Origin: Minisyncoccota bacterium
GTDB lineage: Bacteria > Patescibacteriota > Minisyncoccia > Phycocordibacterales > JBAYGS01
Length of the DNA stretch: 64,000 bases
Reading direction: 5' to 3'
Assembly (NCBI GenBank): GCA_041666545.1
Contig: JBAYGS010000004.1
Coordinates: 8,610-72,609 of the forward strand
Below, piece by piece: positions 6,139 through 64,000 of this stretch; the stretch's first letter is position 1; each line of letters begins with the position of its first letter. The notes below the pieces were generated by a model. The model searched no databases and was not told the DNA's origin. It saw only the letters and a program-made list of their open reading frames with translations. The translations under genes and the position numbers were made by a program.

Positions 6139-6233
6139 CCCCAGTAGTCCACGCCCTAAACGATCTTCTCTGGTTTTTCGGAGTATCGACCCTCTGAGAG
6201 ACGAAGCTAACGCGTTAAGAGAAGCGCCTGGGT

Positions 6234-6265
<32 letters not shown>

Positions 6266-6642: not shown

Positions 6643-6863
6643 AAGGCGAGGATGACGCCAGGTCAGCATGGCCCTTTGATACCCTGGGCCACACACGTGA
6701 TACAATGCCGATTACAACGGGATGCGACGGGGAAACCCTGAGCCAACCCTAAGAAAAATCGGCCAAGTTCGGATTGAGGTCTGCAACTCGACCTCATGAA
6801 GCTGGAATCGCTAGTAATCACAGGTCAGCTATACTGTGGTGAATACGTTCTCAAGTCTTGTAC

Positions 6864-8151: not shown

Positions 8152-8493
8152 ATACCGCCCGTCAACTCAAGGGAGTTGGGAGCGCCCGAAATCTCACGCA
8201 AGTGGGCCTAAGGCGAGCTCAATGACAGGGAGTAAGTCGTAACAAGGCACGGGTAGCGGAAGCTGCTCGTGGATTATTTCAAATTGAACAACGTTGAATG
8301 CCTATTTATTTATGCATCTCAACTTAATCGGTCGTTATCGCGTATTCCATATGGATACACGATGTCCGCCTGAGGGGCTAATTTCAGGGGATAGTGATTC
8401 GATATCCTAAAAGTGAATCTGACATCGGGAAAGACTGGACGCGACACGAAAGTGTCTCGAGGAACGGAACAAAATAAAGCATGTTTCAAAAGC

Positions 8494-13121: not shown

Positions 13122-13145
13122 GCAGGGACTTGCAAGCAGGACAGT

Positions 13146-13183
13146 GGCCCGGGAACGCGCAGCGCGTTTCCGGGCCTTTTTAT
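13146..13183 (+). terminator. Rho-independent terminator
   Basis: ggcccgggaacgcgcagcgcgtttccgggcc + ttttt. Confidence 0.6.
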
Positions 13184-13303
13184 TACAAATATTTACAAAT
13201 AGCGGCCTTGTGCTCCAATGTACACAGGACTCCCCTGTGTAAACGGTGGAGGTGGCTAAAATAAGCCATTTTTTGGGAAATATCAATGATTTGTCAAAAA
13301 TGC

Positions 13304-13332
13304 TTGACAAACGACTTCAAATTTGCTATAAT
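13304..13332 (+). promoter_or_regulatory. Strong sigma70-like promoter (TTGACA-17-TATAAT) with overlapping TTGTCAA/TTGACAA palindrome
   Basis: ttgaca 13304-13309, tataat 13327-13332. AT-rich promoter embedded in GC-rich DNA. The inverted repeat ttgtcaaaaatgcttgacaa overlaps the -35. Confidence 0.55.
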
Positions 13333-13437
13333 ATGCACAGAAAACCTGAAAGAAAGATCTCGACTGGGTCTCGGCACTTCGCCGGATAAGGGGCACCTGT
13401 CCCACCAAAGTTGAGATGCAGAAACGAAAGAAGCGAT

Positions 13438-39893: not shown

Positions 39894-41305
39894 AGACGAT
39901 AATTATTCCGGTTACCACCAATTTTTTTACCAGGAATTATCTTCATTCCGGCTTTATCAGCAAGATCGCTAAGACGCCGGAAGTGCAGATTGTTCTTGTG
40001 GTACCGGGACGCTTGAGGTCTGATTATGAAAAAATTTTCGCCGAACTCGATAATATCCGGTTGGTTGAATTTCCACATAATGGTCATCGACTGGCCGATA
40101 AGATTTTTAAGTTTATTGAGACTTCAAGTATCAGTACTCACACTCGATACATGCAGATGATGTCGGAATTTTTCCGACTCCAGGCCAAACATAATTTCTT
40201 GGTGAGATGGTCGATCTTGTTCACTCGGCTTGGTTTTTTCGCCTTAGGTAAATTTAGGTTCTGGCGAGTTTTTATAAGGTGGAGCTATGGAGTAATCCCG
40301 AGCCGGACTTTTGCCGAAATACTCAATGAGTATCAGCCGGATTTGGTTTTCTCTCCGACCATGCTTTATGACGATTATCGGATTCTAAAAGAGGCCAAGC
40401 AGAGGGGGATTAAAACTGCCGGCATAATCCTAAGCTGGGATAATCTTTACAGTAAATCATTGTTGCGTGTTCATCCGGATCAACTTTTTGTGCACACCGA
40501 GGTGTTAAAACAACAAGCCGCGAGTCTTGGTGATTATCCGGCTTCGCATATCTTGGTCACCGGAGTCTTGCAGTATGATCGGTATTTCAATCGGGATCAG
40601 ACTAAAACCGACTGCCAAGCTTTTCGAGAATCGGTCGGCTTTAAAAAAGATGAAGCGATGATCTTGTACGCCTTGTCGGGAAAGGCCGGTCTTGATATAG
40701 ACTTTGTTATTCTTAAACTGATCAGAAAAATTATCGATAGCGGACAACTAGAAAGGAAAGCCAATGTTTTGATTAGGCCGTATCCCAAGGTTGATTTTTC
40801 CGTAGAAAAGCTGGAAAGACTGCAAGCCGAACTCGGCTTTGTTGGCCAGTCATCAGTGGCCCATTTTGCCGAACGAGATGATTGGGAGTTTGATGAACAA
40901 TCTTTAAATTTGCTCGAAATGCAACTCCAGTGCACTGACATCGTCATTACCATGTATTCAACTTTCTTTATCGAGGGGGCGATTTTTGACAAGCCGCTTA
41001 TCGGTATAGCTTTCGATGGTGACTTAAAGCGTGATTATTGGAATTCGGCCAAACGATTTTTTGATTGGGATCATTTAAGAGATATTAAAACTACCAATGG
41101 CATTGATTTGGTGAGGACCGAGAATGAATTGAAGGAGTCACTTAACCTGGCCATTAAAAATCCGGGGCAACTTCAGTTGGGTCGAGAAAGTATTGTTAAG
41201 ATGCAATGCGAGTTTACCGACGGTAAAGCGAGTTGGCGGCTGGCTTCCGCGATCAGTAAATTGTTAAGCCAGGAGACCGACAAAACCATTCATGCTAATA
41301 TTTAA
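39890..41305 (+). CDS. TagB/TagF-family glycerophosphotransferase-like protein, paralog 2
   Basis: 471 aa. Same architecture. MYSTFFIEGAIFDKPLIGIAFDG. Confidence 0.5.
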   Translation: MKTIIIPVTTNFFTRNYLHSGFISKIAKTPEVQIVLVVPGRLRSDYEKIFAELDNIRLVEFPHNGHRLADKIFKFIETSSISTHTRYMQMMSEFFRLQAKHNFLVRWSILFTRLGFFALGKFRFWRVFIRWSYGVIPSRTFAEILNEYQPDLVFSPTMLYDDYRILKEAKQRGIKTAGIILSWDNLYSKSLLRVHPDQLFVHTEVLKQQAASLGDYPASHILVTGVLQYDRYFNRDQTKTDCQAFRESVGFKKDEAMILYALSGKAGLDIDFVILKLIRKIIDSGQLERKANVLIRPYPKVDFSVEKLERLQAELGFVGQSSVAHFAERDDWEFDEQSLNLLEMQLQCTDIVITMYSTFFIEGAIFDKPLIGIAFDGDLKRDYWNSAKRFFDWDHLRDIKTTNGIDLVRTENELKESLNLAIKNPGQLQLGRESIVKMQCEFTDGKASWRLASAISKLLSQETDKTIHANI

Positions 41306-41310
41306 CCTTA

Positions 41311-42717
41311 ATGAAAAAAACTGAAACAATTTTAATTAGCATCGCTTCTTCAGCCGCCTTTCGAAACCTGTTTTTATTTCCAGGGAGTTTCCTTGATTAT
41401 TTGAAACAAGCGATGCGGTCGGGTGATTTATCTGTCGTCTTCGTTGTGACAAAGCAATATGACGCTAAATATCGCGAATTTTTAAATCAGGCGTTGGCTG
41501 AAGTCAAAGATTACTGGACGATCGAAGTCATTAAAGTGCCGACCCCTAGAGGATTTCTCCAAAGATTTTTCTATTTCTGTTACTCGTACCTGATCTTTAC
41601 CGGCACCACGATGATTATGGCCACGATTGGTACCCGGCCGGATGAACCGCCGGCTGGCGGGCGAGGATACCTTTCGCCGATTAAAGGATTCATCAGTTTG
41701 AGTCTTGGGAAATCAGCTTATGTGAAGCAAAAACTGGTACCGGCTCTGTTTCAGTCTATTTTCAAAAACATTCGATCTTTTGCCCCAGTTTTCGATAAGT
41801 ACCAACCGGTCAAAATTTTTGCCACCCACATTTATGGTTGGTTCGACATGATTTTGATTTCTGAGGCGAAGCGGCGAAATATCAAGACAGTCGGCATGCC
41901 GGCCGGTTGGGATCATTTGGATAAATATTTCTTGCCGCTCAAAGTTGATCGACTGGTTGTGCAGAGTCAGCAAATTAAAGATATGGCCGTCGATTACCAA
42001 GGTTATAATCCTGAGTCGATTGAAATTGTCGGCTATCCGCACTTTGATTTTATTTGGAAGCGAGAATTTTTGCAGCCGAGGGAGAAAATTTTGGAAACTC
42101 TTAATTTTCCGACCAACGCCAAGTTTATTCTGTATATCTCGGGCAGTGCCTATTGTCCTGATGAGCCGGAAATAATTGAGACCATGATCAAGTGGGCCGA
42201 CGAAAATAAATTTGGCACTGATGTGCGTTTTGTGATCCGCCCTTACCTTGGCGGTCGCAGCAAAGATCGAGAGTTCGATGAAGAAAAGTTTAATCGTTTT
42301 GAGAATAATCCGAGGGTTTATTTTTACCGGCGAGAGTTTTGGGGAGATATCCCAAAAACCGAGCATTTTTTGAACATCATCAATTCTGCCGATGCCGTGA
42401 TTTCGGTTTACAGCACCGCCGTGCTTGAGGCGGCCGTGCTCGATCGCCCGATTGTGGCCCCGCTTTTTGACGGCTATCAAATTCGTCCTTTCAGGCGTTC
42501 GATTACTCGTTTTGCCAAATTCGATCACTTTAAGAGTGTTCTTGAGACCGGCGCCTTAAGAACCCCGAAGAGCTTTAAAGAATTATTTGCCGATCTGGAT
42601 AAATATTTGCGCGACCCTGCAGCCGATTCCGATAAGCGCCGACTTTTGAGAGAAAACGTCTGCGGCCCGCTTGATGGTCATTCATCTGAAAGGGTTTTTA
42701 GGGCTCTGTCTAAGTGA
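41311..42717 (+). CDS. TagB/TagF-family glycerophosphotransferase-like protein, paralog 3
   Basis: 468 aa. KFILYISGSAY. VYSTAVLEAAVLDRPIVAPLFDG. Confidence 0.5.
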   Translation: MKKTETILISIASSAAFRNLFLFPGSFLDYLKQAMRSGDLSVVFVVTKQYDAKYREFLNQALAEVKDYWTIEVIKVPTPRGFLQRFFYFCYSYLIFTGTTMIMATIGTRPDEPPAGGRGYLSPIKGFISLSLGKSAYVKQKLVPALFQSIFKNIRSFAPVFDKYQPVKIFATHIYGWFDMILISEAKRRNIKTVGMPAGWDHLDKYFLPLKVDRLVVQSQQIKDMAVDYQGYNPESIEIVGYPHFDFIWKREFLQPREKILETLNFPTNAKFILYISGSAYCPDEPEIIETMIKWADENKFGTDVRFVIRPYLGGRSKDREFDEEKFNRFENNPRVYFYRREFWGDIPKTEHFLNIINSADAVISVYSTAVLEAAVLDRPIVAPLFDGYQIRPFRRSITRFAKFDHFKSVLETGALRTPKSFKELFADLDKYLRDPAADSDKRRLLRENVCGPLDGHSSERVFRALSK

Positions 42718-49171: not shown

Positions 49172-51052
49172 ATGTGCGGCATAACTGGCTTCTATGGACA
49201 AGGTTCAAAGGCTGATCTTCAGGCGATGAATGACACGCTTATTCATCGTGGTCCGGACTCGGAAGGACTGTATTTCGAAAATGGCAAAATCGGTCTCGGT
49301 TTCAGACGGTTGGCCATTATTGACGTCCGCGGTGGCAATCAGCCGATTTGGAACGAGACGAAAGATGTAGCGGTTATTTTTAATGGTGAAATTTATAATT
49401 TCCAAGATTTACGCAACGACTTGGAGAAGCGTCATCGCTTTGTGACCAAAACTGACACGGAAGTTATCATCCACCTTTATGAGGAAGTCGGGGAAAAGTG
49501 TTTTGAGAGGCTAAATGGCATGTTTGCCATTGCCGTCTATGATTTAAAGAAAAATAAGTTGGTGATCGCCCGTGATCGATTCGGCAAAAAACCGCTTTAT
49601 TATGCCGAACGAGAGGGGACGGTAATTTTCGGTTCTGAGCTCAAGGCTCTTCTCAAGCACCCACTGATCAGAAATCCCAAACTCGACGCCACTTCGCTTA
49701 ATCTGTATTTGACGCACGAGTTTGTGCCGTCGCCGAGAACCATCTATCAGAATATTTTTAAAGTTGAGCCCGGAACGGCGATTTCCTTCGACCGATCAGG
49801 TAAATGGGAATTGCAATTTTATTTTTTAAAGTACAATAAAGATGAGCCGCGTTTGAGCGAAACGGAATATTTGGAAAAGTTGGATTTTTTGCTCGGTGAT
49901 GCGGTCAAAAAGCGTTTAGTTTCGGATGTGTCGCTCGGAATATTTTTAAGCGGTGGACTTGATTCTGGCGCTGTAGCGCATTATGCGATGAAGTTTGGCA
50001 GCCAGCAGGCGCGAACTTTTTCGATCGGTTTTGATGATAAATCTTTCGACGAATCGGAGTGGAGTAGCCTGACCGCCGATTATCTCGGAACTTTGCATCA
50101 GAACAAAAATTTTTCGGCCAAGGAGATGCAGGACCTGATTCCGCAGGTTGCCAAATTGATTGATGAACCGGTCTCCGATGCGGCGCTCTTTCCCAATTAT
50201 CTCTTGTCGAAATTTGCCAGAGAAAATGTGACAGTTGCTCTCGCCGGTGACGGGGGTGATGAAATATTTTTCGGTTACCCGACTTTTCAATCGGCCAAGA
50301 TTTCTGATTGGTTTAGAAAGATTCCGGAGAGTTTAAGGCGGTCGCTTTTGGAACCGACGGTCGGCCTGCTTCCGACTTCCTTCAATAATATTACTTTAGA
50401 CTATAAACTGAAGCGTTTTTTCACGGGTCTTCATTACCCAAAAAAGTATGAGCAGCTGATTTGGGTCGGTTCGTTTACACCCGAAGAGAAGCGGGGATTG
50501 TTGCACGAAGATTTTCTGAGTCAAATCGAACCCGGCTCAGAGTTTTCCTTCGTCGATAAGTATCGAGATCCGATTAAAGGAGCCGGTGAACTCGATCAGG
50601 TTGGAGATTTTTATTTGAGGACTTATTTGGCTGATGGGGTTTTGGCGATTAAAGATCGGGCGAGCATGATGGCATCTCTCGAGCTTCGCGCGCCGTTCCT
50701 CGACTACCGGCTGGTTGATTTTGCCGCTTCGCTACCGACAGATTTGAAAATGAAGGGTTTCAATACTAAGTATCTCTTGAAGAAACTGATGGAAGGTAAG
50801 TTGCCCGATGAGGTGGTTTATCGACCCAAAAAAGGCTTTGGCATCCCGATTGCCAAATGGCTTCGAGGCGAGCTGAAAGATTTTATGCTCGAGACTTTGA
50901 GTGAGGAGTCAATTAACGAAGGAAAAATTTTCAACTATAGTTTCATAAAAAAACTAATAGACGATCATTTATCCGGCAAGAAAGATAACCGTAAATTACT
51001 TTGGACACTGTTGGTTTTTGAGTTGTGGCGTAAAGAGTGGCTCAAAGCTTAA
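49172..51052 (+). CDS. asnB: Asparagine synthase (glutamine-hydrolysing)-family amidotransferase
   Basis: MCGITGFYGQ (N-terminal nucleophile Cys2). SGGLDSGAVAHY PP-loop. Start at ATG 49172. Confidence 0.85.
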   Translation: MCGITGFYGQGSKADLQAMNDTLIHRGPDSEGLYFENGKIGLGFRRLAIIDVRGGNQPIWNETKDVAVIFNGEIYNFQDLRNDLEKRHRFVTKTDTEVIIHLYEEVGEKCFERLNGMFAIAVYDLKKNKLVIARDRFGKKPLYYAEREGTVIFGSELKALLKHPLIRNPKLDATSLNLYLTHEFVPSPRTIYQNIFKVEPGTAISFDRSGKWELQFYFLKYNKDEPRLSETEYLEKLDFLLGDAVKKRLVSDVSLGIFLSGGLDSGAVAHYAMKFGSQQARTFSIGFDDKSFDESEWSSLTADYLGTLHQNKNFSAKEMQDLIPQVAKLIDEPVSDAALFPNYLLSKFARENVTVALAGDGGDEIFFGYPTFQSAKISDWFRKIPESLRRSLLEPTVGLLPTSFNNITLDYKLKRFFTGLHYPKKYEQLIWVGSFTPEEKRGLLHEDFLSQIEPGSEFSFVDKYRDPIKGAGELDQVGDFYLRTYLADGVLAIKDRASMMASLELRAPFLDYRLVDFAASLPTDLKMKGFNTKYLLKKLMEGKLPDEVVYRPKKGFGIPIAKWLRGELKDFMLETLSEESINEGKIFNYSFIKKLIDDHLSGKKDNRKLLWTLLVFELWRKEWLKA

Positions 51053-53264: not shown

Positions 53265-54008
53265 ATGGATATAGGCCTATACCGAGAATTTGATAAAATT
53301 GGCAATGACAATTGGTGGTATGCCGGCCGGAGAAAAATTATTTCCACGATTCTTCACCCTTTTTTAATTCCAGGAGATCTGTCCAAAAAGCGAGTCTTGT
53401 CTGTCGGCTGCGGGACCGGCCAAGAGTTGGATTTTCTCGGTCGCTATGGTTCAGTCGCGGGAGTCGATAAGAGCGAGGAGGCAATTTATTTTTGCCGGAA
53501 AAATAATCCCAAAAGTTTGGTGGCAGTCGCCGATGCCGAAAAGCTGCCTTTTCCAGATAAAGTTTTCGCCCTGGTTTTCATCTTAGATGTAATTGAACAC
53601 GTCGATAACCCCAACGCGGTTTTAAATGAGATTGACCGAGTCCTCAAAGATGATGGTACGGTTGTTTTGACTGTGCCGGCTTATAATTTTCTCTGGAGCA
53701 AAAGCGATGAAAGGTCACATCATAAATGTCGATTCACTGCAGGGCGGTTGCGAGATTTGGTCAGTCAACGGTTTGAGGTTAAAAGACTGACTTATTTTAA
53801 TACCATATTTTTCCCGGCAATTGCATTGATTAAAATTGCTTTAGGAGTATTTGAGCCCAAGGGCCTTTCCCAATACGAAGTTTCGAACCCACCAAAGCTG
53901 CTCAATGAGATCTTGAAAAAGGTGTTCTTGTCCGAAGCTTTTCTCTTGAGGTATTTCCGACTGCCTTTCGGGGTTTCGATCGGTACCGTCCTGGTTAAGA
54001 AAAGATAG
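53265..54008 (+). CDS. Class I SAM-dependent methyltransferase
   Basis: RVLSVGCGTGQELDFL. FALVFILDVIEHVDNP. Confidence 0.8.
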   Translation: MDIGLYREFDKIGNDNWWYAGRRKIISTILHPFLIPGDLSKKRVLSVGCGTGQELDFLGRYGSVAGVDKSEEAIYFCRKNNPKSLVAVADAEKLPFPDKVFALVFILDVIEHVDNPNAVLNEIDRVLKDDGTVVLTVPAYNFLWSKSDERSHHKCRFTAGRLRDLVSQRFEVKRLTYFNTIFFPAIALIKIALGVFEPKGLSQYEVSNPPKLLNEILKKVFLSEAFLLRYFRLPFGVSIGTVLVKKR

Positions 54009-54143: not shown

Positions 54144-55535
54144 ATGGCCAATCCTTCAGTGCCAGATAACATCAGTATTCCAAAAGCCTTTGTGACCGGC
54201 GAGGTTCAGATGGGCTTTTGGAGTTATGTCAAAAAAGGGGTAAGTGCCGCCGATTCTTTTTTTGTACTCCGGGCGTTGTCGATTTATCAGTACGGCGTTT
54301 ATCAGTTGCTTTTGACTTCCTACGCGATACTTTCCGATGTCTTTCTAGATTTGTTCGCCACAGTTTCCGGCAACGATGTCATCCTTTTGGTTGGACAAGG
54401 TAAGGAGGCTCAAGCTAAGAAACTTTATTTTGAGTATGCCAGATTCCGTCTCTTGATGGCGCTTATCCCTTTTCTCGGCATCTTTTTCTTTGCGCCAATC
54501 TTCTTTACCCGCTATGGGCCGGAAGCCATAGTTTGGATCAGGATTCTCTCTTTGCTTTTTATCGTCGACGCCGCTTCAAATTTATTCCGACTGGCCCTAA
54601 ATTTGCGATTGGATTTTAAAACTTTGGCGATTATGCCGACTACGCAAAAGTCGATACAGCTTGTATTTCTGGTTTATTTTTACTTTTTCTCAAACCTATC
54701 TCTTACCAATGTGATTTTTTCGCTAGTGGCGGCCCCGATCATATCTATTTTGGTATTTTCACCGGCTTTGCGCCGAGCGTTTGCACCGTGGCGCCACTTA
54801 ACTCCTGATCCGGGACAAATGTTTGTACCAGTCATCCGGACCTACGGTTTCTGGGAAGTTCCACAGCTGCTTTTTAAAGGTTTGACCGGCAAAGTAAGCC
54901 CATTTGTCATTAAGCTCTTCTTGAACACTGAGGCAGTCGGCATCTTCGGTGTTGCCAATACGGCTATTTCGATTCTCAAGGACTTGCTGCCAATCAGAAC
55001 TTTGACGACTCTCATTCCGCGCAAGGCGGCCGATCGGAAGTATTCTGATTATTTGTTTCGGCATGGGACCAAGCACTACACTCTGATGTCGCTCGTCGTC
55101 AGTGTGGCGGGACTGATTTTTTATCCCGTCGCAATTTATTTGTTTTTCCCAAAATTCAGCGCCTCAATTCCGATTTTCTCAGTTTTGATTTTGGGCGTGC
55201 CAATTTTTGCTTTCGTTAAACTCTTGGCCGTTTTCCTGGTGGCAAAACGCCGACAGCGCTTCATTTTCTATCAGATGATTTTTGACAATGTCGTCGGAAT
55301 CAGCTTGATGCTCCTCTTCCTGCCTTTTTGGGGGCTTATGGGCATGGCGGTAGCTTCAGTCTCGGCCGACTTTATCACCGATGCTGGCCGGTTCATCTAT
55401 CTGGTTAAAACCGGTTTTGTCAGACCATTTTCTTTTCGTACCCTGTTCCGTTGGACCGAGGAGGACAGTAAAATTTATCAAAATGTGTGGCGGCACTTTC
55501 GACAGGCTTTCCTCGACAAGATTTCCGGGGTTTGA
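54144..55535 (+). CDS. Polysaccharide/oligosaccharide flippase (Wzx-like, MOP superfamily)
   Basis: 463 aa, ~12-14 TM. Positioned in the glycan cluster. Confidence 0.5.
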   Translation: MANPSVPDNISIPKAFVTGEVQMGFWSYVKKGVSAADSFFVLRALSIYQYGVYQLLLTSYAILSDVFLDLFATVSGNDVILLVGQGKEAQAKKLYFEYARFRLLMALIPFLGIFFFAPIFFTRYGPEAIVWIRILSLLFIVDAASNLFRLALNLRLDFKTLAIMPTTQKSIQLVFLVYFYFFSNLSLTNVIFSLVAAPIISILVFSPALRRAFAPWRHLTPDPGQMFVPVIRTYGFWEVPQLLFKGLTGKVSPFVIKLFLNTEAVGIFGVANTAISILKDLLPIRTLTTLIPRKAADRKYSDYLFRHGTKHYTLMSLVVSVAGLIFYPVAIYLFFPKFSASIPIFSVLILGVPIFAFVKLLAVFLVAKRRQRFIFYQMIFDNVVGISLMLLFLPFWGLMGMAVASVSADFITDAGRFIYLVKTGFVRPFSFRTLFRWTEEDSKIYQNVWRHFRQAFLDKISGV

Positions 55536-55621: not shown

Positions 55622-56407
55622 ATGGCCAGAACGAATTCCAAATTAAAAAATTTTTACGACAAGGTCTACTTGAAAGGCGAGAAGAAACACTACAGCAAAC
55701 TGCTTTTGGGAGACAAGATTACCGAGGAGAAAAAGGCAATCCTTGGCGAGGTGTCTTGGTCAGGCAAGAAAGTGCTCGATGTTGGTTGCGGCACAGGGGA
55801 GCTGGCGTTTCTGGTTGCTAAGGAAGGGGCAGAGAAAGTAGTAGCGATCGATTATTCGGCATCGGCGATTGAAGTTGCCAACGCGAATTACCATTCTGAC
55901 AATTTAGCCTATCGTTGCGAGGATATTAATAAGATTTCCGGTTCTTTTGATGTCATAACAGTGGTTGGAGTCCTGGAGCACATTGATGATCCCTTGAAGC
56001 TCCTTAAAAAGCTCAAGAAGATGTTGGCACCGAAAGGCTCGATTATTGTCACTTGCCCGAACTGGTCAAATCCGAGGGGATATATTCTGCTCGCGCTCAA
56101 GGACCTTTTTGATGCCGAAATCACTCTGGCCGATATCCATTATTTTACTCCCGTTGAATTTGAGAAGTGGTCTAAGCTGCTTAAGATGTTTTTAAGCTGG
56201 AAGACCTTGGAGCATGACTGGGGTCATGGAAAAAAACTCATCAAAGATTTTACTCGGCGCCTGCCAAACGTGCTCAAACCTTTAAAAGGCGCCTCCAAAA
56301 CCGGCATTGATACATTTATCAAATGGTTGGATAGTCATGTGTCAGAACTCGAGGGTGAGTTGAAGCACAATGGAGCTACCGGCTTTTATCATTTCCGTCT
56401 GGACTAG
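55622..56407 (+). CDS. Class I SAM-dependent methyltransferase
   Basis: KVLDVGCGTGELAFLVAKEG. FDVITVVGVLEHIDDP. Confidence 0.8.
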   Translation: MARTNSKLKNFYDKVYLKGEKKHYSKLLLGDKITEEKKAILGEVSWSGKKVLDVGCGTGELAFLVAKEGAEKVVAIDYSASAIEVANANYHSDNLAYRCEDINKISGSFDVITVVGVLEHIDDPLKLLKKLKKMLAPKGSIIVTCPNWSNPRGYILLALKDLFDAEITLADIHYFTPVEFEKWSKLLKMFLSWKTLEHDWGHGKKLIKDFTRRLPNVLKPLKGASKTGIDTFIKWLDSHVSELEGELKHNGATGFYHFRLD

Positions 56408-56502: not shown

Positions 56503-57912
56503 ATGCATCAGAGAGTCGTATTTTTAACTCTATTTGAAGGGATCGAGGGGAAAAATCTGCTGCGGTCTCCCTTTGTTAGTCATTTGCTGTCCGGCCAGGA
56601 TATTAAAATTGTCTGTTTTGTTAAAAATGACGAGAGGAAGATTGGCTATGAAAAGCTCTTCAAACATCCGAGGCTGTTTTTTGAGGCCGTCGATTTTCCT
56701 AAAACAGTTTGGCCGGAAAAAATTTTTGCGACTCTGAAGTTTTATCAGATTTGGACTGAAACTACGGATTTGCGAGCTAAGATGGTCAAAGAGCGCGACG
56801 GTCAATTTTTTGCCTATTATTTTAAGCTTTTGCTTCATCGAGTATTGGCACGGCGACTCATGAGAGTCGTCATCCGTTTCCTCGATAGCCGGCTAATAAA
56901 AGATCGGACTTTTAAAAAGTATTTTAAAAAATACCAGCCGAGTTTGATTATTTGCGCCCAGTTGTTTGAAGAGATTGAGGTCCATTTGGTCAAGCGGGCC
57001 AAAGCTGAAGGCGTGAAGACTGTTTGCTTCATTAATACTTGGGACAAAGTCACAGCCAGAAACGCTTTCCGTGTTCTAGTCGATAAGTTTATAACTTACA
57101 ATGAGATCGTTAAGACTGAGCTCATCGAAAATGATGATGTGAAGGCTCAAGACGTTTACGTATCCGGAATCCCTCAATACGATTATTTCTTTGATGACTC
57201 GGCTCTTGAAATAATCAAAGAGACTTTCAAGATTGAGGTGCCAAAGCTCCGGACTCGAGAGGAGTTTTTGAATAGTATCGGTCTTACCAAAGATGAGAGG
57301 TTTATTTTCTACGCTCCGGTTGGCAGTGTCTATAGTAATGACGATTGGGCGATTATTGATCTTTTGACGGAATCAATAAAGCAAGGACAGTTTGGCTCCG
57401 GTCTCGAGCTCTTTGTCCGGTTTCCACCAAATGATTTTGTAAACAAAGCTGAGTCTGACAAGAGAAAAGATCTTCATTTTTATGCTCCGGGAATCCGTTT
57501 CTCTTCGAAGCGGGGGAGCGACTGGGATATGAGTTTTGCAGATATCATGTCGCTCAAGGAAACTCTCAAATACTCAGAGTTGGTAATTTGCTATGCCTCC
57601 AGTATCTCAATTGATGCCAGTATCTTTGAAAAACCCATCATTAATATAAATTTCATAACTCGGGCCTCGAGTTTGATGATTAAAACACCTACAGCGTTTT
57701 ATCCCATGACCCATTATCAAAAGGCGCTCAAGACAGGGGCGATTGATTTGGCAAGCTCAAAGGAGGAAATGATTGAGCTCATAAAGGGTTATATTAAGAG
57801 TCCAGATGAAAATCGGGGTAATCGTGATAATCTGGTGGCTCGGCAGTGCCAATTTAAGGATGGCTTGGCTGGCAAGCGAATGGCCGATTTTGTGAAGTCC
57901 TGCTTGACATAA
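56503..57912 (+). CDS. TagB/TagF-family glycerophosphotransferase-like protein, paralog 4
   Basis: 469 aa. RFIFYAPVGSVY. CYASSISIDASIFEKPIININFI. Confidence 0.5.
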   Translation: MHQRVVFLTLFEGIEGKNLLRSPFVSHLLSGQDIKIVCFVKNDERKIGYEKLFKHPRLFFEAVDFPKTVWPEKIFATLKFYQIWTETTDLRAKMVKERDGQFFAYYFKLLLHRVLARRLMRVVIRFLDSRLIKDRTFKKYFKKYQPSLIICAQLFEEIEVHLVKRAKAEGVKTVCFINTWDKVTARNAFRVLVDKFITYNEIVKTELIENDDVKAQDVYVSGIPQYDYFFDDSALEIIKETFKIEVPKLRTREEFLNSIGLTKDERFIFYAPVGSVYSNDDWAIIDLLTESIKQGQFGSGLELFVRFPPNDFVNKAESDKRKDLHFYAPGIRFSSKRGSDWDMSFADIMSLKETLKYSELVICYASSISIDASIFEKPIININFITRASSLMIKTPTAFYPMTHYQKALKTGAIDLASSKEEMIELIKGYIKSPDENRGNRDNLVARQCQFKDGLAGKRMADFVKSCLT

Positions 57913-57938: not shown

Positions 57939-59048
57939 ATGCCCTCAAAAACCGGTAAATCGTCGTCAAAAATTGTACCGAAGCCTGGCCGAAGCGGCGC
58001 TTTTGTCATTGCTGAAATTGGCAAAAATTTTATAATTTCTGAACAGGATGAGTCTCCAGAGACTTATCTTAAGCGGGCCAAAGATTTGATCCGAGAGTCT
58101 TATGAGGCCGGTGCCGATGCGGTTAAATTTCAGACCCACCATTTTGAAGATGAGCAGATACCGGAGAAGATTTTTTCGCCACATTTCAACGGTGCGGATC
58201 GTTACAATTGGGTCCTGAGGAATAGTCGGCTTACTCCGATAGAATTTTGGCGGGAAATCAAAAACTATGCCGATCATCTGGGAATTCAGTTTTTTATCAC
58301 TCCGATGTCGCGTGGGGCAGTGCGGAAGGTTGCAGACCTCAGTCTGCCTTTTTGGAAGATCGGATCCGGCGATGTGACTGATTTTTTGATGATCGACGAA
58401 TTGGCCAAGTTTAATAAGCCGATTATTATTTCGACCGGTATGGTCAGTTTGAAAGAGTTGGATAAGGTGGTAAGTTATATCAGGGCTAAGGGAGTTAGGC
58501 CTGTAATCATGTACTGTGTCAGCAAATATCCGGCGCCAAAAGAAGCTTTCAATCTTGGCACGATTGAATTTTTGAAGGAAAAATACCCAGACTTGCAGAT
58601 TGGCTTTTCGGATCATTCGGTTGATAATCATGACATCGCTCTTTCTGCGGTCGCACTAGGTGCTAGTTTAATTGAAAAGCATGTCTCGTATTCCAGAGAC
58701 CATTGGGGACCGGACCACAAGGCCTCTTTAACCTTTGCTGAGTTACGCGAACTGGTTGAAGAGATCCGTAGCGGAACGAAGAAGCTCGAGGTCGGAGATT
58801 TTTACGGTTCCAAAGGCAAAGAGTTGGCTGGCGCGACCAGCGAATTCCGTCCATTTTTTCGAAAAGCTTTTGTCGCGGCGCGTGATATCAAAAAAGGTGA
58901 AGTGATTACTTTGGATAATATTTTGGCCATGAGACCGGCGCTTTTGCTGGGAGGAATTCCGTCAGAAGATTTGACCAAAGTTGTCGGCAAGAAAGCTAAC
59001 TGCGGAATTAAAAAACTTAATCCGATTAAAGCTGAAAATTTAAATTAA
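57939..59048 (+). CDS. neuB: N-acetylneuraminate (nonulosonic acid) synthase, NeuB/PseI/LegI family
   Basis: FVIAEIGKNF, AVKFQTH, IISTGM, MYCVSKYPAP, GFSDHS. C-terminal SAF domain (ARDIKKGEVITLDNILAMRP). Confidence 0.85.
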   Translation: MPSKTGKSSSKIVPKPGRSGAFVIAEIGKNFIISEQDESPETYLKRAKDLIRESYEAGADAVKFQTHHFEDEQIPEKIFSPHFNGADRYNWVLRNSRLTPIEFWREIKNYADHLGIQFFITPMSRGAVRKVADLSLPFWKIGSGDVTDFLMIDELAKFNKPIIISTGMVSLKELDKVVSYIRAKGVRPVIMYCVSKYPAPKEAFNLGTIEFLKEKYPDLQIGFSDHSVDNHDIALSAVALGASLIEKHVSYSRDHWGPDHKASLTFAELRELVEEIRSGTKKLEVGDFYGSKGKELAGATSEFRPFFRKAFVAARDIKKGEVITLDNILAMRPALLLGGIPSEDLTKVVGKKANCGIKKLNPIKAENLN

Positions 59049-59053
59049 AAACA

Positions 59054-60226
59054 ATGAAGAAGACCATAACTCCTAAAAGAAAAGTTTGTTTCGTCATTAC
59101 GAGCTTTATTCATTATTCCAGAAGCATCCTGATTTTGGAGGAGCTCCGAACTCGTAAAGATGTGGAACTTTACATAATTGTCGGTGGCACTGCCATCTTG
59201 AGCAAATATTCTGCGAGCTCGGCTTATGTTCGGAAAATCTTGGAACAGGACGGCTATAAAAACATTTATGAGCTTCACTTTAATTTGGAGGGCGATGATG
59301 CGATTGTTAAAACAAAAACAATCGGTCTTGGGGTAATCGAATTTGCCAGCATTTACAACCATATCAAACCGGACATGGTTGTAATTAGGGGTGATCGGTT
59401 CGAGATTTTCGCCGCCGCAATCGCGGCAGCCAATATGAATATTCCAATCGCTCACATCGAAGGTGGAGATGTGTCGGGCACGATTGATGAGAGCTTGAGG
59501 CACGCGATTACCAAGCTGTCTCATATCCATTTCACCACCAACGATGAGGCCAAGGAGCGCGTTATCAGGATGGGCGAGAATAAGGATTACGTTTTCAACT
59601 TCGGCAGTCCGGAGGTTGAAGTGGTGAGTAAAATGCCCCTCAAGGCTGACCGAGTTAATTTGGAGGAGACCGGTAGCGGAGCCAAGCTTGATCCGAGCAA
59701 AGAATTTCTGATGGTGATGTATCATCCGGTCACGACCGAACTTGATAAAATCGGAGAGAATGTCAGGACTCTTCTAAATGCCGTTCATAAAACCAAGATG
59801 CCGACGATTTGGTTTTGGCCCAATTTTGACGCCGGTGCGGAACAGATCTCTCATGAACTCAGAGTCTTCAAAGAGCATGTTAAAGATCATCGAATCAGAT
59901 TTATGCGTTACCTGCCACCTAAAGACTTTATCTGGCTACTGAGACGAACCAGTTGTCTGGTTGGCAATTCTTCCGCCGGCATCAAAGAAACATCTTTTTT
60001 GGGTGTGCCGGTAATTGATGTTGGCACCAGGCAGAATGGACGCTTGAGTTCAAGTAATGTCGTGAAGGTTGGTTATAATGAAGCGAAGATTGTTGAGGCT
60101 ATAAAAAACCAGGTAAAAAATGGCCGTTACCCAGTTTCCGATATCTACAAGGGTGAAGATACCGCTAAAAAAATTGCGGAAAAAATTGCTACAGCTAAGC
60201 TATATGTTCAAAAGAAATTTGAGTAG
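59054..60226 (+). CDS. neuC: UDP-N-acetylglucosamine 2-epimerase (hydrolysing), NeuC family
   Basis: KVCFVITSFIHYSR...HIEGGDVSGTIDESLRHAITKLSHIHFTT. Confidence 0.85.
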   Translation: MKKTITPKRKVCFVITSFIHYSRSILILEELRTRKDVELYIIVGGTAILSKYSASSAYVRKILEQDGYKNIYELHFNLEGDDAIVKTKTIGLGVIEFASIYNHIKPDMVVIRGDRFEIFAAAIAAANMNIPIAHIEGGDVSGTIDESLRHAITKLSHIHFTTNDEAKERVIRMGENKDYVFNFGSPEVEVVSKMPLKADRVNLEETGSGAKLDPSKEFLMVMYHPVTTELDKIGENVRTLLNAVHKTKMPTIWFWPNFDAGAEQISHELRVFKEHVKDHRIRFMRYLPPKDFIWLLRRTSCLVGNSSAGIKETSFLGVPVIDVGTRQNGRLSSSNVVKVGYNEAKIVEAIKNQVKNGRYPVSDIYKGEDTAKKIAEKIATAKLYVQKKFE

Positions 60227-60232
60227 ATTAAA

Positions 60233-60964
60233 ATGAATCAAGACAGGAAAAAATACAATATTCTCGGTGTTATTCCGGCTAGGGGCCAGTCTAAAGGTTT
60301 GCCTGGGAAAAATATTAAAAAATTGGCCGGTAAGCCGATGATTGCTTATACTATCGAGGCGGCTAAGAAAAGCCAGTTGATCAGTCATCTGATTGTTTCT
60401 ACTGATGATAAAAAAATTGCCGCCATCTCTAAAAAATATGGAGTCGAGGTGCCATTTTTACGTCCGGCCGAATTGGCCAAAGATGACACGCCACAGTTGC
60501 CGGTTATGCAGCACGCTATCAACTTTATGGAGCAGCGCGAAGGACTTAAGTTTGATTACATTGTCATTTTGCAACCAACCTCACCTTTGAAAACTGTCGA
60601 GATAATTGATGGCACTCTCGATGAGCTGATTAAGTCAGGCGCCGACAGCGCAGTTTCAATTGCCGAAGTCCGATCTAATCATCCGATTAAAATTAAAAAA
60701 TTTGAAAATGGCAAAGTGATTCCTTTTTGTCTGCCGGAGCCGGAAGGTTTGAGGCGCCAAGATTTCCCCAAAGCCTACAAACGAAGCAGTGATGCTTACG
60801 CGATGAAGCGTGACACGATTATGGTTAAGAACCGCTTGTACGGCGATAATATTGCCGGTTTTGTGGTTGATTCGGAATTTGTCGTTGATATCGATTCCCA
60901 GGAAGATTTTCTGGTGGCGGAGTATAAGCTCAAAAAGTTTCAAGGAGAGCGCCTCAGGACTTAA
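60233..60964 (+). CDS. neuA: Acylneuraminate cytidylyltransferase (CMP-nonulosonic acid synthetase), NeuA family
   Basis: ILGVIPARGQSKGLPGKNIKKLAGKPMIAYTIEAA...LQPTSPL. Confidence 0.85.
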   Translation: MNQDRKKYNILGVIPARGQSKGLPGKNIKKLAGKPMIAYTIEAAKKSQLISHLIVSTDDKKIAAISKKYGVEVPFLRPAELAKDDTPQLPVMQHAINFMEQREGLKFDYIVILQPTSPLKTVEIIDGTLDELIKSGADSAVSIAEVRSNHPIKIKKFENGKVIPFCLPEPEGLRRQDFPKAYKRSSDAYAMKRDTIMVKNRLYGDNIAGFVVDSEFVVDIDSQEDFLVAEYKLKKFQGERLRT

Positions 60965-60992
60965 TCTAAAATTTCTGCTAAAATCGATTTCT

Positions 60993-61718
60993 ATGAAAGA
61001 TAACCTTGTTGTCGGAGGGGGCGAAGTCGGGTCGGCTATCAATAGCATCTTAAAAGGATCGGAAATTTTTGATATCGATCCGACTAAGAATTCGGTCAGC
61101 CAAAAGAGATACCTAAATTTGCACATCTGCTTTCCTTACAATAGGGATTTTGTGAAAAGCGTACAGAAGTATCAAAAACAGTTTAAACCGAGTCTGACAA
61201 TTATCCACTCAACAGTTCCACTGGGGACGTCGGATAAACTTAAAGCCGTCCACTCTCCAGTGAGGGGTATCCATCCCCATTTGGCTAAGAGTTTGAAAAT
61301 TTTTCCCAAGTTTTTCGGCGGACCCAAAGCGAGATTGGCCGCAGAAATTTTCGATCGCGTCGGAGTAAAAATTCTCTGCACCCCGAAGGCCGAGACGACT
61401 GAAGCGATGAAGCTTTGGGATACCACGATCTACGGTCTCAACATCATTTTGGAAAAAGAAATCCATAAATTTTGCGAAGACAATTCGGTTGATTTTGATG
61501 TTGTCTATACTAAGGCCAATCAAAGCTATAACGCCGGCTATCGAATCTTGGGTCGGCCGGAGTATCAAAAGTATGTTTTGTCGCATGTGCCGGGGGGAGT
61601 GGGCGGTCACTGTGTCATCGCCAATGCTGAGTTGCTAAAATCTACCTCTGCCAAGCGATTGGTCAAAGAAAATGCCGAGTTTGTCAAAGCTAAATCACGT
61701 AGATCTAAGTCCAAGTAG
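60993..61718 (+). CDS. Short NAD(P)-binding Rossmann-fold protein, possibly nucleotide-sugar dehydrogenase-like; hypothetical
   Basis: ~241 aa from ATG 60993. N-terminal VVGGGEVGSAI. PGGVGGHCVIAN resembles the GGxC catalytic-Cys motif of UDP-glucose/GDP-mannose dehydrogenases. The track ORF start at 60810 overlaps neuA and is rejected. Confidence 0.4.
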   Translation: MKDNLVVGGGEVGSAINSILKGSEIFDIDPTKNSVSQKRYLNLHICFPYNRDFVKSVQKYQKQFKPSLTIIHSTVPLGTSDKLKAVHSPVRGIHPHLAKSLKIFPKFFGGPKARLAAEIFDRVGVKILCTPKAETTEAMKLWDTTIYGLNIILEKEIHKFCEDNSVDFDVVYTKANQSYNAGYRILGRPEYQKYVLSHVPGGVGGHCVIANAELLKSTSAKRLVKENAEFVKAKSRRSKSK

Positions 61719-61757
61719 GCTTACCTGCAGCCGGTTGGTTTAGAGTTAAAATTTATT

Positions 61758-62723
61758 ATGTCTCTTTCGACAGACGAAAATCATATCATCGTCAATTATC
61801 ATTATGTGGAGGATCCGCGAGATGATCTTTCCGGTGTTCATCCCTGCACGCCAAAAGAATTTGAGAGGCAAGTAAAATTCTTGTCCGAAAATTACAAAAT
61901 AGTCTCGGTAGGGGAGGTGCTGGAAGCTACGCGTTTGGATGTCAGTCGTGGTGCCAAGCCGACGGTTGCCGGTAATCCGAGTCGGTTCTGTGCCATAACT
62001 TTTGATGACGGTCTGCAAAACCAATTTCAATATGCGGCACCGATTTTGGAAAAGTACGGGGCGACAGCGACTTTTTTTGTTATCACCAGTACCTTTTCCG
62101 GGACGGTTCCTTCAGCCCATAAAATTCACGTGGTGCTTTCGGCTGCTTCAACCGAGAAACTGATTGATATGTTCAACGAGTTTTTGATCAGGACCTATCC
62201 TGATCTAGAGGCACAGCATTTTATTCCTAAAGATCGACGCATCACAATGCGGCGTAAATATGACAGCTTGCTTGATGCCAACTTCAAAGAGACTTTGATT
62301 GTTGTTCCGTCGGAAGTTCGTGACGCTTTTTTAATTGAGGCTTTTGACAAATTTGGGCTTGATGAGTCGACCGTTAATCAGATGCTTTTTATGAAAGAGG
62401 CGGAAATCAGCGATCTGGCCAGTCGGGGTTTTTTTATTGAAAATCATACCCATGAGCACGGTTCTCTGGAGCAGGTTTCAGTCGAAGCCCTAACGGCCGA
62501 TCTCGAAACTGCCAACTCGATCTTACATAAATTGTTGGGTCGACGGCCGACGGTGATTTCTTATCCGCATGGCCGTTTTGACGAACGGATTCGCGATGTG
62601 ATTGTTAAGGCCGGTTTAAAATACGGTGTGACAATCGAGCCACGTTCAGTTTCATCAAAAGACGATTCTTTTTTGATACCCCGTTACGATACTAACGATT
62701 TAAAGAAATATATAAACCAATGA
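61758..62723 (+). CDS. Polysaccharide deacetylase family protein (NodB homology domain)
   Basis: ITFDDGLQNQFQYAAPILEKYGATATFFV. ENHTHEHG. YPHGRFD. Confidence 0.8.
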   Translation: MSLSTDENHIIVNYHYVEDPRDDLSGVHPCTPKEFERQVKFLSENYKIVSVGEVLEATRLDVSRGAKPTVAGNPSRFCAITFDDGLQNQFQYAAPILEKYGATATFFVITSTFSGTVPSAHKIHVVLSAASTEKLIDMFNEFLIRTYPDLEAQHFIPKDRRITMRRKYDSLLDANFKETLIVVPSEVRDAFLIEAFDKFGLDESTVNQMLFMKEAEISDLASRGFFIENHTHEHGSLEQVSVEALTADLETANSILHKLLGRRPTVISYPHGRFDERIRDVIVKAGLKYGVTIEPRSVSSKDDSFLIPRYDTNDLKKYINQ

Positions 62724-63049
62724 ATATCGGCGTTGATTTGGTCGCAATCAAAAAATTCCATAAAATCAAGGCTCACGACTATAAACACTGGTCAAGAGTT
62801 TTTTCGATGTTAGAGTGGGAGTATGCTTTCAAGGATGGCTTATCTGCTTCGCACTTGGCCGGCATCTTCGCCGCCAAGGAAGCGGCGATGAAAGCTACCG
62901 GTTTGGTAGGAGTGGAGAATTATCGTAAGTTTGAGGTTCGCCATGATAAACTGGGGGCTCCGAAACTTAATTTAAAAGGTTCTAAACTGAGCCTTTCTCA
63001 TGATCAGGGGTTGGCGATTGCGTTTGTTCTAGCCTCGACTAAAAAATAG
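62720..63049 (+). CDS. 4'-phosphopantetheinyl transferase (holo-ACP synthase, AcpS-like)
   Basis: 109 aa. IGVDLVAIKKF...LAGIFAAKEAAMKATG...SLSHDQGLAIAFV. Confidence 0.55.
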   Translation: MNIGVDLVAIKKFHKIKAHDYKHWSRVFSMLEWEYAFKDGLSASHLAGIFAAKEAAMKATGLVGVENYRKFEVRHDKLGAPKLNLKGSKLSLSHDQGLAIAFVLASTKK

Positions 63050-63053
63050 GCTT

Positions 63054-64000
63054 ATGTCTTTTCGTGATTTACAAATGAAGATCGGAGAATTAATTTCCAG
63101 TCGGACTGCTACGGTGGCTGACTATTTAAAGATTTCAAAGGAGATAGTGCCCGCCGGTGAATTTCCGTTTTATTTTCGCCAGATCAAAGCCGCTTTTTTG
63201 AGCAGTTACACGATTCAAGGATTACCGGAGGTGTTTCAGGTTCGAGGTGTTTTTCATAATTTAAAGATCAGCACTTACACTGCTCCTTACGCGCAGATTA
63301 GTCAGGAAATTTTAAATCAAGCAAGCGAACTTTATAAGTTTAATCCGGACATTGTTTACATTTTGGCGGAGCAGAAAGATTTTCTCGGTGATGGCCATTT
63401 GGCTCAGCTGGTCGAAACCTTAAAGGAGAAGACTGAGGCAGAAGTAATTCTGGTTTTGGCGGGCGGGGAAAACCGGGGCAGGGAGAGGCTGCACATTTTT
63501 GACTTCGAATCTTTTTTGGACAAAATTGGTCGTGCGGGAAATTGGTATACCAAATTCAAAGACTTGGGTGATCTGCGGTTGGCGCCACAAGCGTTTCCGG
63601 TTCTTGCTGAGTCCCTCTTGGCTTACGCGGTGGCATCGGCCGGCAACAACAAGAAATGCCTGGTAGTTGATTTAGACAATACCCTCTGGACCGGCGTGGC
63701 TGGTGAGGATGGGCCGCGAAAAGTCGTGCCAAACCAAAAGCTCCAGGAACATCTGCTCGGACTCTATAAGCGGGGTGTAGTCCTGGCGATTAACAGCAAA
63801 AATAATCCGGAAGATGCTTTTGAGGTAATTGATAATCATCCAGAGATGATTTTGCGTCGGGATCATTTTGCCGCTTGGCGGATTAACTGGAATAATAAAG
63901 ATTCAAATTTAATTGAGCTTAGCGAGGAGATGTCTCTGGGAACCGCTAGTTTTGCTTTTATTGATGATGATCCACTTAATCTCGGACTAGTGAGATCGAA
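63054..64000 (+). CDS. FkbH-like HAD-superfamily (IIIC) phosphatase domain protein; 3' end beyond window
   Basis: CLVVDLDNTLWTGVAGEDG and VLAINSKNNPEDA are HAD-IIIC/FkbH signatures. Open at the window end. Confidence 0.55.
   Translation, partial: MSFRDLQMKIGELISSRTATVADYLKISKEIVPAGEFPFYFRQIKAAFLSSYTIQGLPEVFQVRGVFHNLKISTYTAPYAQISQEILNQASELYKFNPDIVYILAEQKDFLGDGHLAQLVETLKEKTEAEVILVLAGGENRGRERLHIFDFESFLDKIGRAGNWYTKFKDLGDLRLAPQAFPVLAESLLAYAVASAGNNKKCLVVDLDNTLWTGVAGEDGPRKVVPNQKLQEHLLGLYKRGVVLAINSKNNPEDAFEVIDNHPEMILRRDHFAAWRINWNNKDSNLIELSEEMSLGTASFAFIDDDPLNLGLVRS

Follow-up and report, generated by a model that had tools for sequence, protein, structure and literature searches.

A NeuB-NeuC-NeuA module beside a mobile acyl cassette: a candidate route to re-acylated nonulosonic acids in a bacterium of the Candidate Phyla Radiation

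Here, we describe the 3' part of a large surface-glycan locus on contig JBAYGS010000004.1, which belongs to a metagenome-assembled genome of the Paceibacteria within the Candidate Phyla Radiation (CPR). NeuB and FkbH proteins identical to those of the locus are deposited at NCBI under a 'Candidatus Paceibacterota' assembly of this kind. The analysed stretch, in the following called the window, comprises 64,000 nucleotides. Towards its end, genes in the order neuB-neuC-neuA are followed by a short dehydrogenase-like gene (X241), a NodB deacetylase, an AcpS-type phosphopantetheinyl transferase and an FkbH-like gene. The first three represent a nonulosonic acid pathway of the NeuC/NeuB/NeuA kind, with a NeuB that belongs to a CPR-specific clade and scores below the curated equivalog cut-offs of NeuB_NnaB and PseI. 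With the deacetylase begins a mobile unit of seven genes, NodB-AcpS-FkbH-ACP-MaoC-SDR-GNAT, where ACP stands for acyl carrier protein and SDR for short-chain dehydrogenase/reductase. We favour the explanation that a sugar of the N-acyl-neuraminic type, activated with cytidine monophosphate (CMP), is re-acylated with a lactyl or glyceroyl group built by this cassette, and assign it a probability of roughly 0.55. Pathogens and vertebrates are the best-known sources of nonulosonic acids, and our full-text literature searches found no paper linking them with CPR bacteria.

The NeuB-NeuC-NeuA core

All genes from 53.2 kb up to the window end are densely packed on the plus strand. Between neuB and FkbH they are separated by 4-39 nt or overlap by 4 nt, and all are intact except FkbH, which is cut by the window end (Table 1). 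An earlier note on this stretch, prepared from the sequence alone, had announced a complete and contiguous set of NeuC, NeuB and NeuA. Pfam and NCBIfam matches bear this out, with the order corrected to neuB-neuC-neuA.

Table 1. Features of the glycan locus within the window (aa, amino acids; SAM, S-adenosylmethionine).
Feature	Position	Strand	Evidence or remark
PglC-type initiating transferase	407-1756		context of glycan locus
AsnB-type glutamine amidotransferase	49172..51052	+	Asn_synthase 2.7e-93, GATase_7 2.6e-46
SAM methyltransferase	53265..54008	+	Methyltransf_11 9.8e-23
MOP/Wzx-type flippase	54210..55535	+	Polysacc_synt 1e-08; MOP flippase NF007773 6.7e-08
SAM methyltransferase	55622..56407	+	Methyltransf_31 2.4e-21
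TagF-fold (Glyphos_transf-like), candidate CMP-nonulosonate transferase	56503..57912	+	directly upstream of NeuB1
NeuB1, nonulosonic acid synthase (condensing phosphoenolpyruvate) with SAF domain	57939..59048	+	Pfam NeuB 3.3e-61, SAF 1e-07
NeuC, hydrolysing UDP-GlcNAc 2-epimerase family	59054..60226	+	TIGR03568 NeuC_NnaA 347 bits
NeuA1, CMP-nonulosonate synthetase (cytidylyltransferase)	60233..60964	+	CTP_transf_3 2.2e-26
X241, two-domain 'mini' oxidoreductase resembling nucleoside diphosphate (NDP)-sugar 6-dehydrogenases, 241 aa	60993..61718	+	weak UDPG_MGDP_dh central domain
NodB-type (CE4) de-N-acetylase, first cassette gene	61758..62723	+	Polysacc_deac_1 2.7e-24 in two stretches
AcpS-type 4'-phosphopantetheinyl transferase	62720..63049	+	ACPS 5.1e-13; TIGR00556 65.3 bits vs cut-off 45.35
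FkbH-like HAD-IIIC, predicted glyceryl-ACP loader	63054..64000	+	first 315 of 541 codons, cut by window end

NeuB1 carries both domains of its family, with 207.2 bits for the NeuB model PF03102 (cut-off 22.1) and 32.8 bits for SAF (cut-off 21). Among solved structures, the best match is Neisseria meningitidis NeuB with 174.6 bits and approximately 35% identity, followed by SpsE of Bacillus subtilis (133 bits) and PseI (8h2c, 115.5 bits). The GFSDH, EKH and MRP motifs of NeuB1 align with GLSDH, ERH and KRP of 1xuu, the N. meningitidis enzyme; these positions we take to be the metal-binding histidines and the SAF-domain arginine of the 1XUZ work. NeuC passes its model well above the curated cut-off of 235.9 bits, whereas the wecB model yields only 61 bits; in the PDB it matches the epimerase domain of human GNE with 206 bits and LegG with 180 bits. 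For NeuA1, the CTP_transf_3 model (PF02348) gives 93.5 bits (cut-off 22.6) and the PDB search returns CMP-NeuNAc synthetases (6ifd, 121.6 bits; 1eyr, 91 bits). Its best NCBIfam model is PseF, at 174.9 bits and thus below the cut-off of 205.7.

NeuB1 was also considered as a KDO8P/DAHP synthase. This was rejected: the DAHP synthase model matches with an E-value of only 3.7e-05, and no KDO-8-P synthase model is among the matches listed.

The earlier note had read the three genes as a route from UDP-N-acetylglucosamine (UDP-GlcNAc) to CMP-N-acetylneuraminic acid (CMP-Neu5Ac). The set is complete and sufficient by established biochemistry; with a NeuB1 below the NeuB_NnaB cut-off and in its own CPR clade, Neu5Ac itself is a possible rather than an established product. 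The window also encodes Mur ligases and pyruvate kinase, so that UDP-GlcNAc and phosphoenolpyruvate are plausibly available.

The putative acyl cassette

The locus runs well beyond base 64000. Its continuation was followed on L001, a Logan assembly of the same contig, whose coordinates equal the window coordinates minus 51757. Here, FkbH is followed by a 77-aa ACP, a MaoC dehydratase, an SDR reductase and a 344-aa GNAT-like protein. Thus, the hint in the earlier note that FkbH, the phosphopantetheinyl transferase and the deacetylase serve an unusual acyl decoration gains four further genes, among them, directly after FkbH, the ACP whose search the note had proposed.

The deacetylase scores 85.9 bits on PF01522 (cut-off 23.1) and retains the metal and base motifs TFDD and HTHEH, with approximately 130 residues inserted between them. 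Read from the sequence, it has no signal peptide, N-terminal hydrophobic stretch or membrane segment and is thus probably cytoplasmic. Its stop codon is overlapped by the AcpS start by 4 nt. FkbH reaches only 115.6 bits on TIGR01686 as the fragment in the window, and 284.4 bits (cut-off 146.65) as the full 541-aa protein from L001. With DLDNT and SCR retained, AcpS adjacent and an ACP at hand, it has the features of a loader. The ACP itself scores 25 bits on PP-binding (cut-off 20.8) and carries its serine in a DSF motif.

These motifs are kept across the cassette orthologues: TFDD and H[ST]xxH in NodB, DxDxT and SCR in FkbH, DSF in the ACP, HxD in MaoC, and the glycine-rich GGTGxxG together with YxxxK in the SDR. 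The GNAT-like family (L001:14330-15364 and orthologues) combines an N-terminal GNAT domain with an invariant C-terminal motif, K-x-D-x-DQDRPNP. The C-terminal half of the family is without a match to any Pfam or NCBIfam model, and a sequence search of the GNAT-like protein against the PDB gave nothing useful.

Occurrence of the cassette in other CPR loci

Five further loci were selected via FkbH homologues (L008, L009, L010, L094 and L095) and two via NeuB1 (L026 and L074). The seven genes occur in identical order in L008 and L009. L010 has the same string with the full-length deacetylase approximately 4 kb upstream and a TagF-like gene immediately 5' of AcpS. A variant is found in L094 (8748-15465), which reads NodB-AcpS-FkbH-ACP-MT-GNAT-NeuC-NeuA. 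Here a SAM methyltransferase (MT) replaces MaoC and SDR, with a TagF-like gene and NodB upstream and NeuC-NeuA downstream. The cassette of L095 is looser, having MaoC but no SDR match; NeuB, NeuA and a TagF-like gene are in its vicinity. In both loci selected via NeuB1, the cassette lies immediately upstream of that gene.

Overall, the cassette abuts NeuB/NeuC/NeuA genes in L001, L008, L026, L074 and L094 and is near them in L095; in L008 and L094 alike, GNAT is directly followed by NeuC-NeuA. NodB-like and GNAT344-like genes are found beside some nonulosonate modules without FkbH as well (L018, L036, L046, L057 and, more distantly, L020).

Proposed pathway

By homology, NeuC would hydrolyse and epimerise UDP-GlcNAc to N-acetylmannosamine (ManNAc), NeuB1 would join ManNAc with phosphoenolpyruvate to a nine-carbon 2-keto-3-deoxy acid, and NeuA1 would use CTP to form a CMP-activated nonulosonate of the N-acyl-neuraminic type. 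The TagF-fold protein just upstream is a candidate for its transferase.

For the cassette, gene content, motifs and recurrence suggest the following steps. AcpS would prime the dedicated ACP, onto which FkbH would load a glyceryl unit from 1,3-bisphosphoglycerate. As a 3-hydroxyacyl thioester, glyceryl-ACP can be dehydrated by a MaoC hydratase/dehydratase, which would give pyruvoyl-ACP via the enol, and the SDR would reduce this to lactyl-ACP. Such a glyceryl-pyruvoyl-lactyl scheme is reportedly used by FkbH-DH-KR loading modules of trans-AT polyketide synthases (bryostatin and FR901464 literature); our literature searches on lactyl-ACP chemistry gave nothing directly relevant. If MaoC and SDR do something else, the carried group would stay glyceroyl. 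The cytoplasmic NodB would remove the N-acetyl group from UDP-GlcNAc, ManNAc or the nonulosonate. We place its action on a pathway intermediate because the enzyme belongs to the conserved unit and shows no signal peptide. Finally, the GNAT-like enzyme would take over the C3 hydroxy-acyl group from the ACP and attach it to the exposed amine, presumably yielding an N-lactyl or N-glyceroyl nonulosonate. The order GNAT, NeuC, NeuA in L008 and L094 would fit an acyl exchange before epimerisation.

Alternative readings

Several points weigh against this pathway. NeuB1 misses both relevant equivalogs, with 243 bits on NeuB_NnaB (TIGR03569, cut-off 399.65) and 212 bits on PseI (TIGR03586, cut-off 340.25), and in a neighbour-joining tree its clade lies apart from N. 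meningitidis NeuB and from the SpsE/DegT-context, PseI and NeuB-cupin groups. The sugar could therefore be a different isomer. Precursor genes of the legionaminic acid (Leg) type could still sit elsewhere in the genome, beyond the window and L001. Within 10 kb of the full cassette in L009 lies neither a nonulosonate gene nor a TagF-like one, and the only such neighbour in L010 is the TagF-like gene; thus, the target need not be a nonulosonate. In addition, the lactyl chemistry is modelled on an analogy with polyketide loading modules, and both the use of acyl-ACP by the GNAT-like protein and the substrate of the deacetylase are presumed.

With respect to the sugar, we looked for Pfam matches to a DegT aminotransferase, a Polysacc_synt_2 (PS2) dehydratase and a PglD-type acetyltransferase among nearly all of the window's non-nested open reading frames (ORFs) with 130 aa or more and the nine complete downstream genes of L001, and found none. 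That PglF/E/D-type precursor genes are missing from the window, as the earlier note had stated, thus holds and extends to the L001 genes.

To survey related loci, 80 of them were gathered by an alignment-based metagenome scan, and their ORFs were labelled with phmmer seeds, those for DegT being ArnB and WecE of E. coli. Relatives of NeuB1 at 50-56% identity number in the thousands; all of those named by organism are Patescibacteria, and a scan of genome contigs with NeuB1 led to a single Saccharibacteria locus. Neighbourhoods were counted in the 21 loci that hold a NeuB1-type gene flanked on each side by 5 kb or more. The matching NeuC type adjoins this gene in 17 of 21, NeuA is present in 20 of 21, and a 2-hydroxyacid dehydrogenase occurs in 14 of 21, usually 3' of NeuA. 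The tree places NeuB1 in a large CPR-specific clade with 100/100 bootstraps; having few references (1xuu, 8h2c, 1vli and 6ncs, transcribed from HMMER alignments), it does not reach as far as a placement relative to the Neu and Leg groups.

An N-acyl-neuraminic-type product derived from ManNAc is the most economical interpretation and the one favoured here, whichever isomer it may be. It is unlikely that NeuB1, NeuC and NeuA1 instead make legionaminic acid or another 5,7-diamino nonulosonate, with dehydratase, aminotransferase and acetyltransferase encoded elsewhere in the genome. The Leg pathway, too, uses NeuC-type epimerases, in line with the LegG match of NeuC, and two members of the NeuB1 clade are labelled 'N,N'-diacetyllegionaminate synthase' at JGI, a name that was assigned automatically. 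A DegT gene lies within 10 kb in only 4 of the 21 loci, in L015 directly 3' of the NeuB1-type gene, while 17 lack one at this distance, as do the scanned ORFs and L001 genes of the locus itself. Moreover, several loci hold a second, low-scoring NeuB, and it is this copy that the DegT/PS2 genes of L014, L021 and L027 adjoin; where both pairs occur (L014 and L027), DegT and PS2 stand next to the second, divergent NeuB/NeuC pair. The second NeuB of L021 best matches PseI (236.7 bits), and that of L014 is accompanied by a separate NeuC-type gene and scores similarly against NeuB, PseI and SpsE.

The pseudaminic acid (Pse) pathway was excluded: pseB, pseC, pseH and pseG were not found in the scanned ORFs and L001 genes, and NeuC is present instead.

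CPR glycan loci (L002-L091) often contain two or three different nonulosonate modules. These are NeuB1-NeuC-NeuA, usually with a D-2-hydroxyacid dehydrogenase (14/21), NeuB-cupin, and DegT/dehydratase-linked modules of the Leg or Pse type.

With respect to the acceptor, the cassette might be an independent module that decorates another amino sugar or polymer of the envelope, such as glycan GlcNAc or ManNAc, peptidoglycan or a lipid, its adjacency to neu genes being incidental. In L009, where NeuB, NeuC and NeuA are missing within 10 kb, its neighbours are a PlsC-type acyltransferase and surface proteins, and in L010 it lies inside a polysaccharide locus with GT2 and UDP-glucose dehydrogenase genes. 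We nevertheless consider such independence doubtful: three of the five loci selected via FkbH have NeuB/NeuC/NeuA genes within 10 kb, four (L008, L010, L094 and L095) have a TagF-like gene, the GNAT-NeuC-NeuA arrangement is repeated in L008 and L094, and both loci selected via NeuB1 carry the cassette directly upstream of it.

With respect to the carried group, a glyceroyl or an O-linked ester in place of N-lactyl is possible, though we would not expect it; MaoC and SDR would then act otherwise, and the substrate of the deacetylase would be the completed polymer. N-glyceroyl (Gra) is a documented decoration in Tannerella forsythia, and L095 has MaoC but no match to an SDR. The methyltransferase of L094, which stands there without MaoC and SDR, suits an O-methyl-glyceroyl group and is reminiscent of the methylated glyceroyl Pse reportedly found in Campylobacter jejuni. 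On the other hand, MaoC and SDR are kept together right after the ACP in L001, L008, L009, L010, L026 and L074, and an extracytoplasmic polymer would be an unlikely substrate for a deacetylase that has neither a signal peptide nor a membrane segment.

Comparison with known systems

The NeuC/NeuB/NeuA systems of E. coli K1 and N. meningitidis (SiaA/SiaC/SiaB) combine the same three enzyme families in one operon. NeuB1 shares the TIM barrel and SAF domain of N. meningitidis NeuB, and NeuC passes its equivalog cut-off. Unlike these systems, our locus has no NeuD, NeuS or NeuE, its NeuB1 belongs to a separate CPR clade below the NeuB_NnaB cut-off, and X241 occupies the slot after NeuA where CPR relatives usually have a 2-hydroxyacid dehydrogenase. 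The Leg pathway (PglF/E/D-type, LegG/LegI/LegF) likewise comprises a NeuC-family 2-epimerase, a NeuB-family synthase and a CMP-transferase, but the scanned window ORFs and the L001 genes include no match to its 4,6-dehydratase, aminotransferase or N-acetyltransferase. CPR loci with Leg-type precursor genes pair them with a different NeuB/NeuC clade.

With polyketide systems that use FkbH and an ACP (methoxymalonyl-ACP, tetronate), the cassette shares an FkbH with DxDxT and SCR, a stand-alone ACP and a dedicated phosphopantetheinyl transferase. Its hotdog dehydratase and SDR could perform a conversion like that of the FkbH-DH-KR lactate starter modules. In contrast to these systems, the cassette comes without a polyketide synthase and with a MaoC-type dehydratase, all proteins are free-standing, a NodB is part of the unit, and the acyl group is proposed to pass to a GNAT-like transferase in a glycan locus.

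An N-glyceroyl nonulosonate, Pse5Am7Gra, is known in T. forsythia, and the enzymes of its modification were unknown as of 2017 (PMC5420450). In C. jejuni, the flagellar glycosylation locus contains cj1302, a gene with an FkbH domain (PMC7099621). The likeness to our locus consists in a C3 hydroxy-acyl group on a nonulosonate nitrogen, as proposed here, an FkbH-type gene in a nonulosonate locus, and a weakly BFO_1060-like transferase beside NeuB. In both organisms, the sugars derive from Pse or Leg and receive their N-acyl groups while being synthesised. The deacetylase in the CPR cassette implies, unlike in these derivatives, the exchange of an existing N-acetyl group.

From a biological point of view, an organism with a minimal genome here devotes tens of kilobases to nonulosonic acids. 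If the pathway is correct, it offers a testable route by which glyceroyl or lactyl groups come onto nonulosonates, a step whose enzymology was unknown for T. forsythia in 2017 (PMC5420450), and it would show FkbH/ACP chemistry outside polyketide synthesis. More tentatively, such an acyl swap in CPR bacteria may lead to a new N-lactyl or N-glyceroyl sugar of the neuraminic type, and the cassette with its variants may represent the missing enzymology for glyceroyl-type decorations of nonulosonates in general, a generalisation that we hold to be possible rather than probable. The surface glycan is a plausible determinant of host attachment by episymbiotic CPR bacteria or of phage evasion, as far as can be inferred. 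Host mimicry, which the earlier note had suggested, is not supported in its vertebrate-style version; close relatives come from environmental metagenomes, several of them with groundwater-style sample names.

The short dehydrogenase-like protein X241

Like NDP-sugar 6-dehydrogenases, X241 has an NAD-binding domain, a central helical domain and the GGHC cysteine motif. Those enzymes have approximately 400-420 aa and three domains, while X241 lacks the C-terminal nucleotide-sugar domain. Its central domain scores 22.8 bits, below the Pfam cut-off of 25.4. The alignment to E. coli WecC spans residues 8-290 of the latter and includes the catalytic cysteine motif GVGGHC. A single-sequence AlphaFold model (pLDDT 31.7) was discarded in favour of an AF2 model based on the family alignment, which reached a pLDDT of 94.4. 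Its top Foldseek hits are UDP-glucose and UDP-ManNAc 6-dehydrogenases, with query-normalised TM scores of 0.67-0.76 and a TMt of approximately 0.45, and the matches take in just the first two domains, less than half, of these targets.

The X241 family comprises approximately 870 representative clusters (50% identity) at E<=1e-10, and most of those listed have 220-260 aa. G8, G10, G13, H94, E137 and C207 are invariant. X241 is therefore not a fragment, and the existence of so many equally long relatives rules out a truncated pseudogene. Of the 90-odd loci surveyed, only this one carries X241; relatives hold the 2-hydroxyacid dehydrogenase at this position. The family is unannotated and has kept the catalytic cysteine while the nucleotide-sugar-binding domain is absent.

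AsnB, TagF-fold proteins and a second nonulosonate module

The AsnB-like protein upstream had been connected in the earlier note with PseA-type enzymes for acetamidino groups. The PseA family we take to be N-acetyl-sugar amidotransferases and not true asparagine synthases. AsnB proves to be a full-length, glutamine-dependent protein of the asparagine-synthase type, with 478 bits on TIGR01536 (cut-off 267) and an N-terminal Met-Cys read from the sequence. The highest score, 546 bits, goes to the XrtA/PEP-CTERM amidotransferase model but stays below the cut-off of that model. No sugar-amidotransferase model is among the NCBIfam matches listed, and nothing marks it as PseA. Probably, AsnB amidates a carboxylate in the glycan.

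The TagF-fold protein adjacent to NeuB1 matches the BFO_1060 family weakly (3.6e-10, 39.5 bits, cut-off 200) and Glyphos_transf weakly at its C-terminus. BFO_1060 is a homologue of the T. forsythia transferases that are needed to put Pse or Leg derivatives on the O-glycan (PMC5420450). Orthologues of the TagF-fold protein directly flank NeuB/NeuC/NeuA modules in many CPR loci. In total, the window holds four such paralogues of 450-470 aa (38541-42717 and 56503-57912), with no gene for CDP-glycerol or CDP-ribitol synthesis in view; all four are candidates for CMP-nonulosonate transferases.

A second nonulosonate module lies approximately 3.3-7.8 kb past the window end (L001:15498-20069). Following the GNAT-like gene, it consists of a 517-aa NeuB-cupin fusion, a second CMP-transferase (NeuA2), an EamA transporter and a GFO/IDH/MocA oxidoreductase, after which comes a Wzy_C-TPR protein. 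The cupin is nearest to D-lyxose/D-mannose isomerases, and the fusion is found at 58-75% identity across many Patescibacteria, usually next to genes for a HAD phosphatase, a CMP-transferase and GFO/IDH/MocA as well as a TagF-like gene. For the NeuB part, the match to 3g8r, an uncharacterised Chromobacterium violaceum structure, reaches 317 bits, compared with approximately 80 bits for NeuB/PseI. Speculatively, fructose or mannose might feed the module, which would then represent a Kdn-type (deaminated) pathway. Literature searches on NeuB plus cupin gave nothing directly relevant.

Locus organisation and further observations

The neu genes and the cassette form the 3' (distal) part of a very large surface-glycan locus of roughly 45 kb. 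We conclude this because glycosyltransferases, TagF-like paralogues, the flippase and the PglC-type transferase share the window. Between 28 and 48 kb, it encodes approximately 10 GT4 and GT2 glycosyltransferases, three further TagF-like paralogues, several methyltransferases and one PMT_2 protein. A scan for promoters and terminators gave counts near the shuffled expectation and zero terminator-like sites inside intergenic gaps.

Directly upstream of the glycan locus (24515-28041), we observe a protein resembling the TrwB/TraG-type coupling ATPases of type IV systems, and after it a surface protein that carries lamin-tail and PKD domains. The region 11685-14448 has a G+C content of 0.53-0.59, compared with approximately 0.44 elsewhere, and long overlapping ORFs on both strands; those scanned on the plus strand have no Pfam match. 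Foreign DNA or a gene of an unusual kind would be possible explanations.

The 16S rRNA gene (within 4663-8284) is stretched to 2.2 kb by a group I intron at 5597-6032, as is typical of CPR bacteria. Downstream of it, matches to group II intron domains (7243-7571), an ORF for a LAGLIDADG endonuclease (7488-8066) and a further piece resembling small-subunit rRNA (8074-8284) suggest a second intervening element close to the 3' end.

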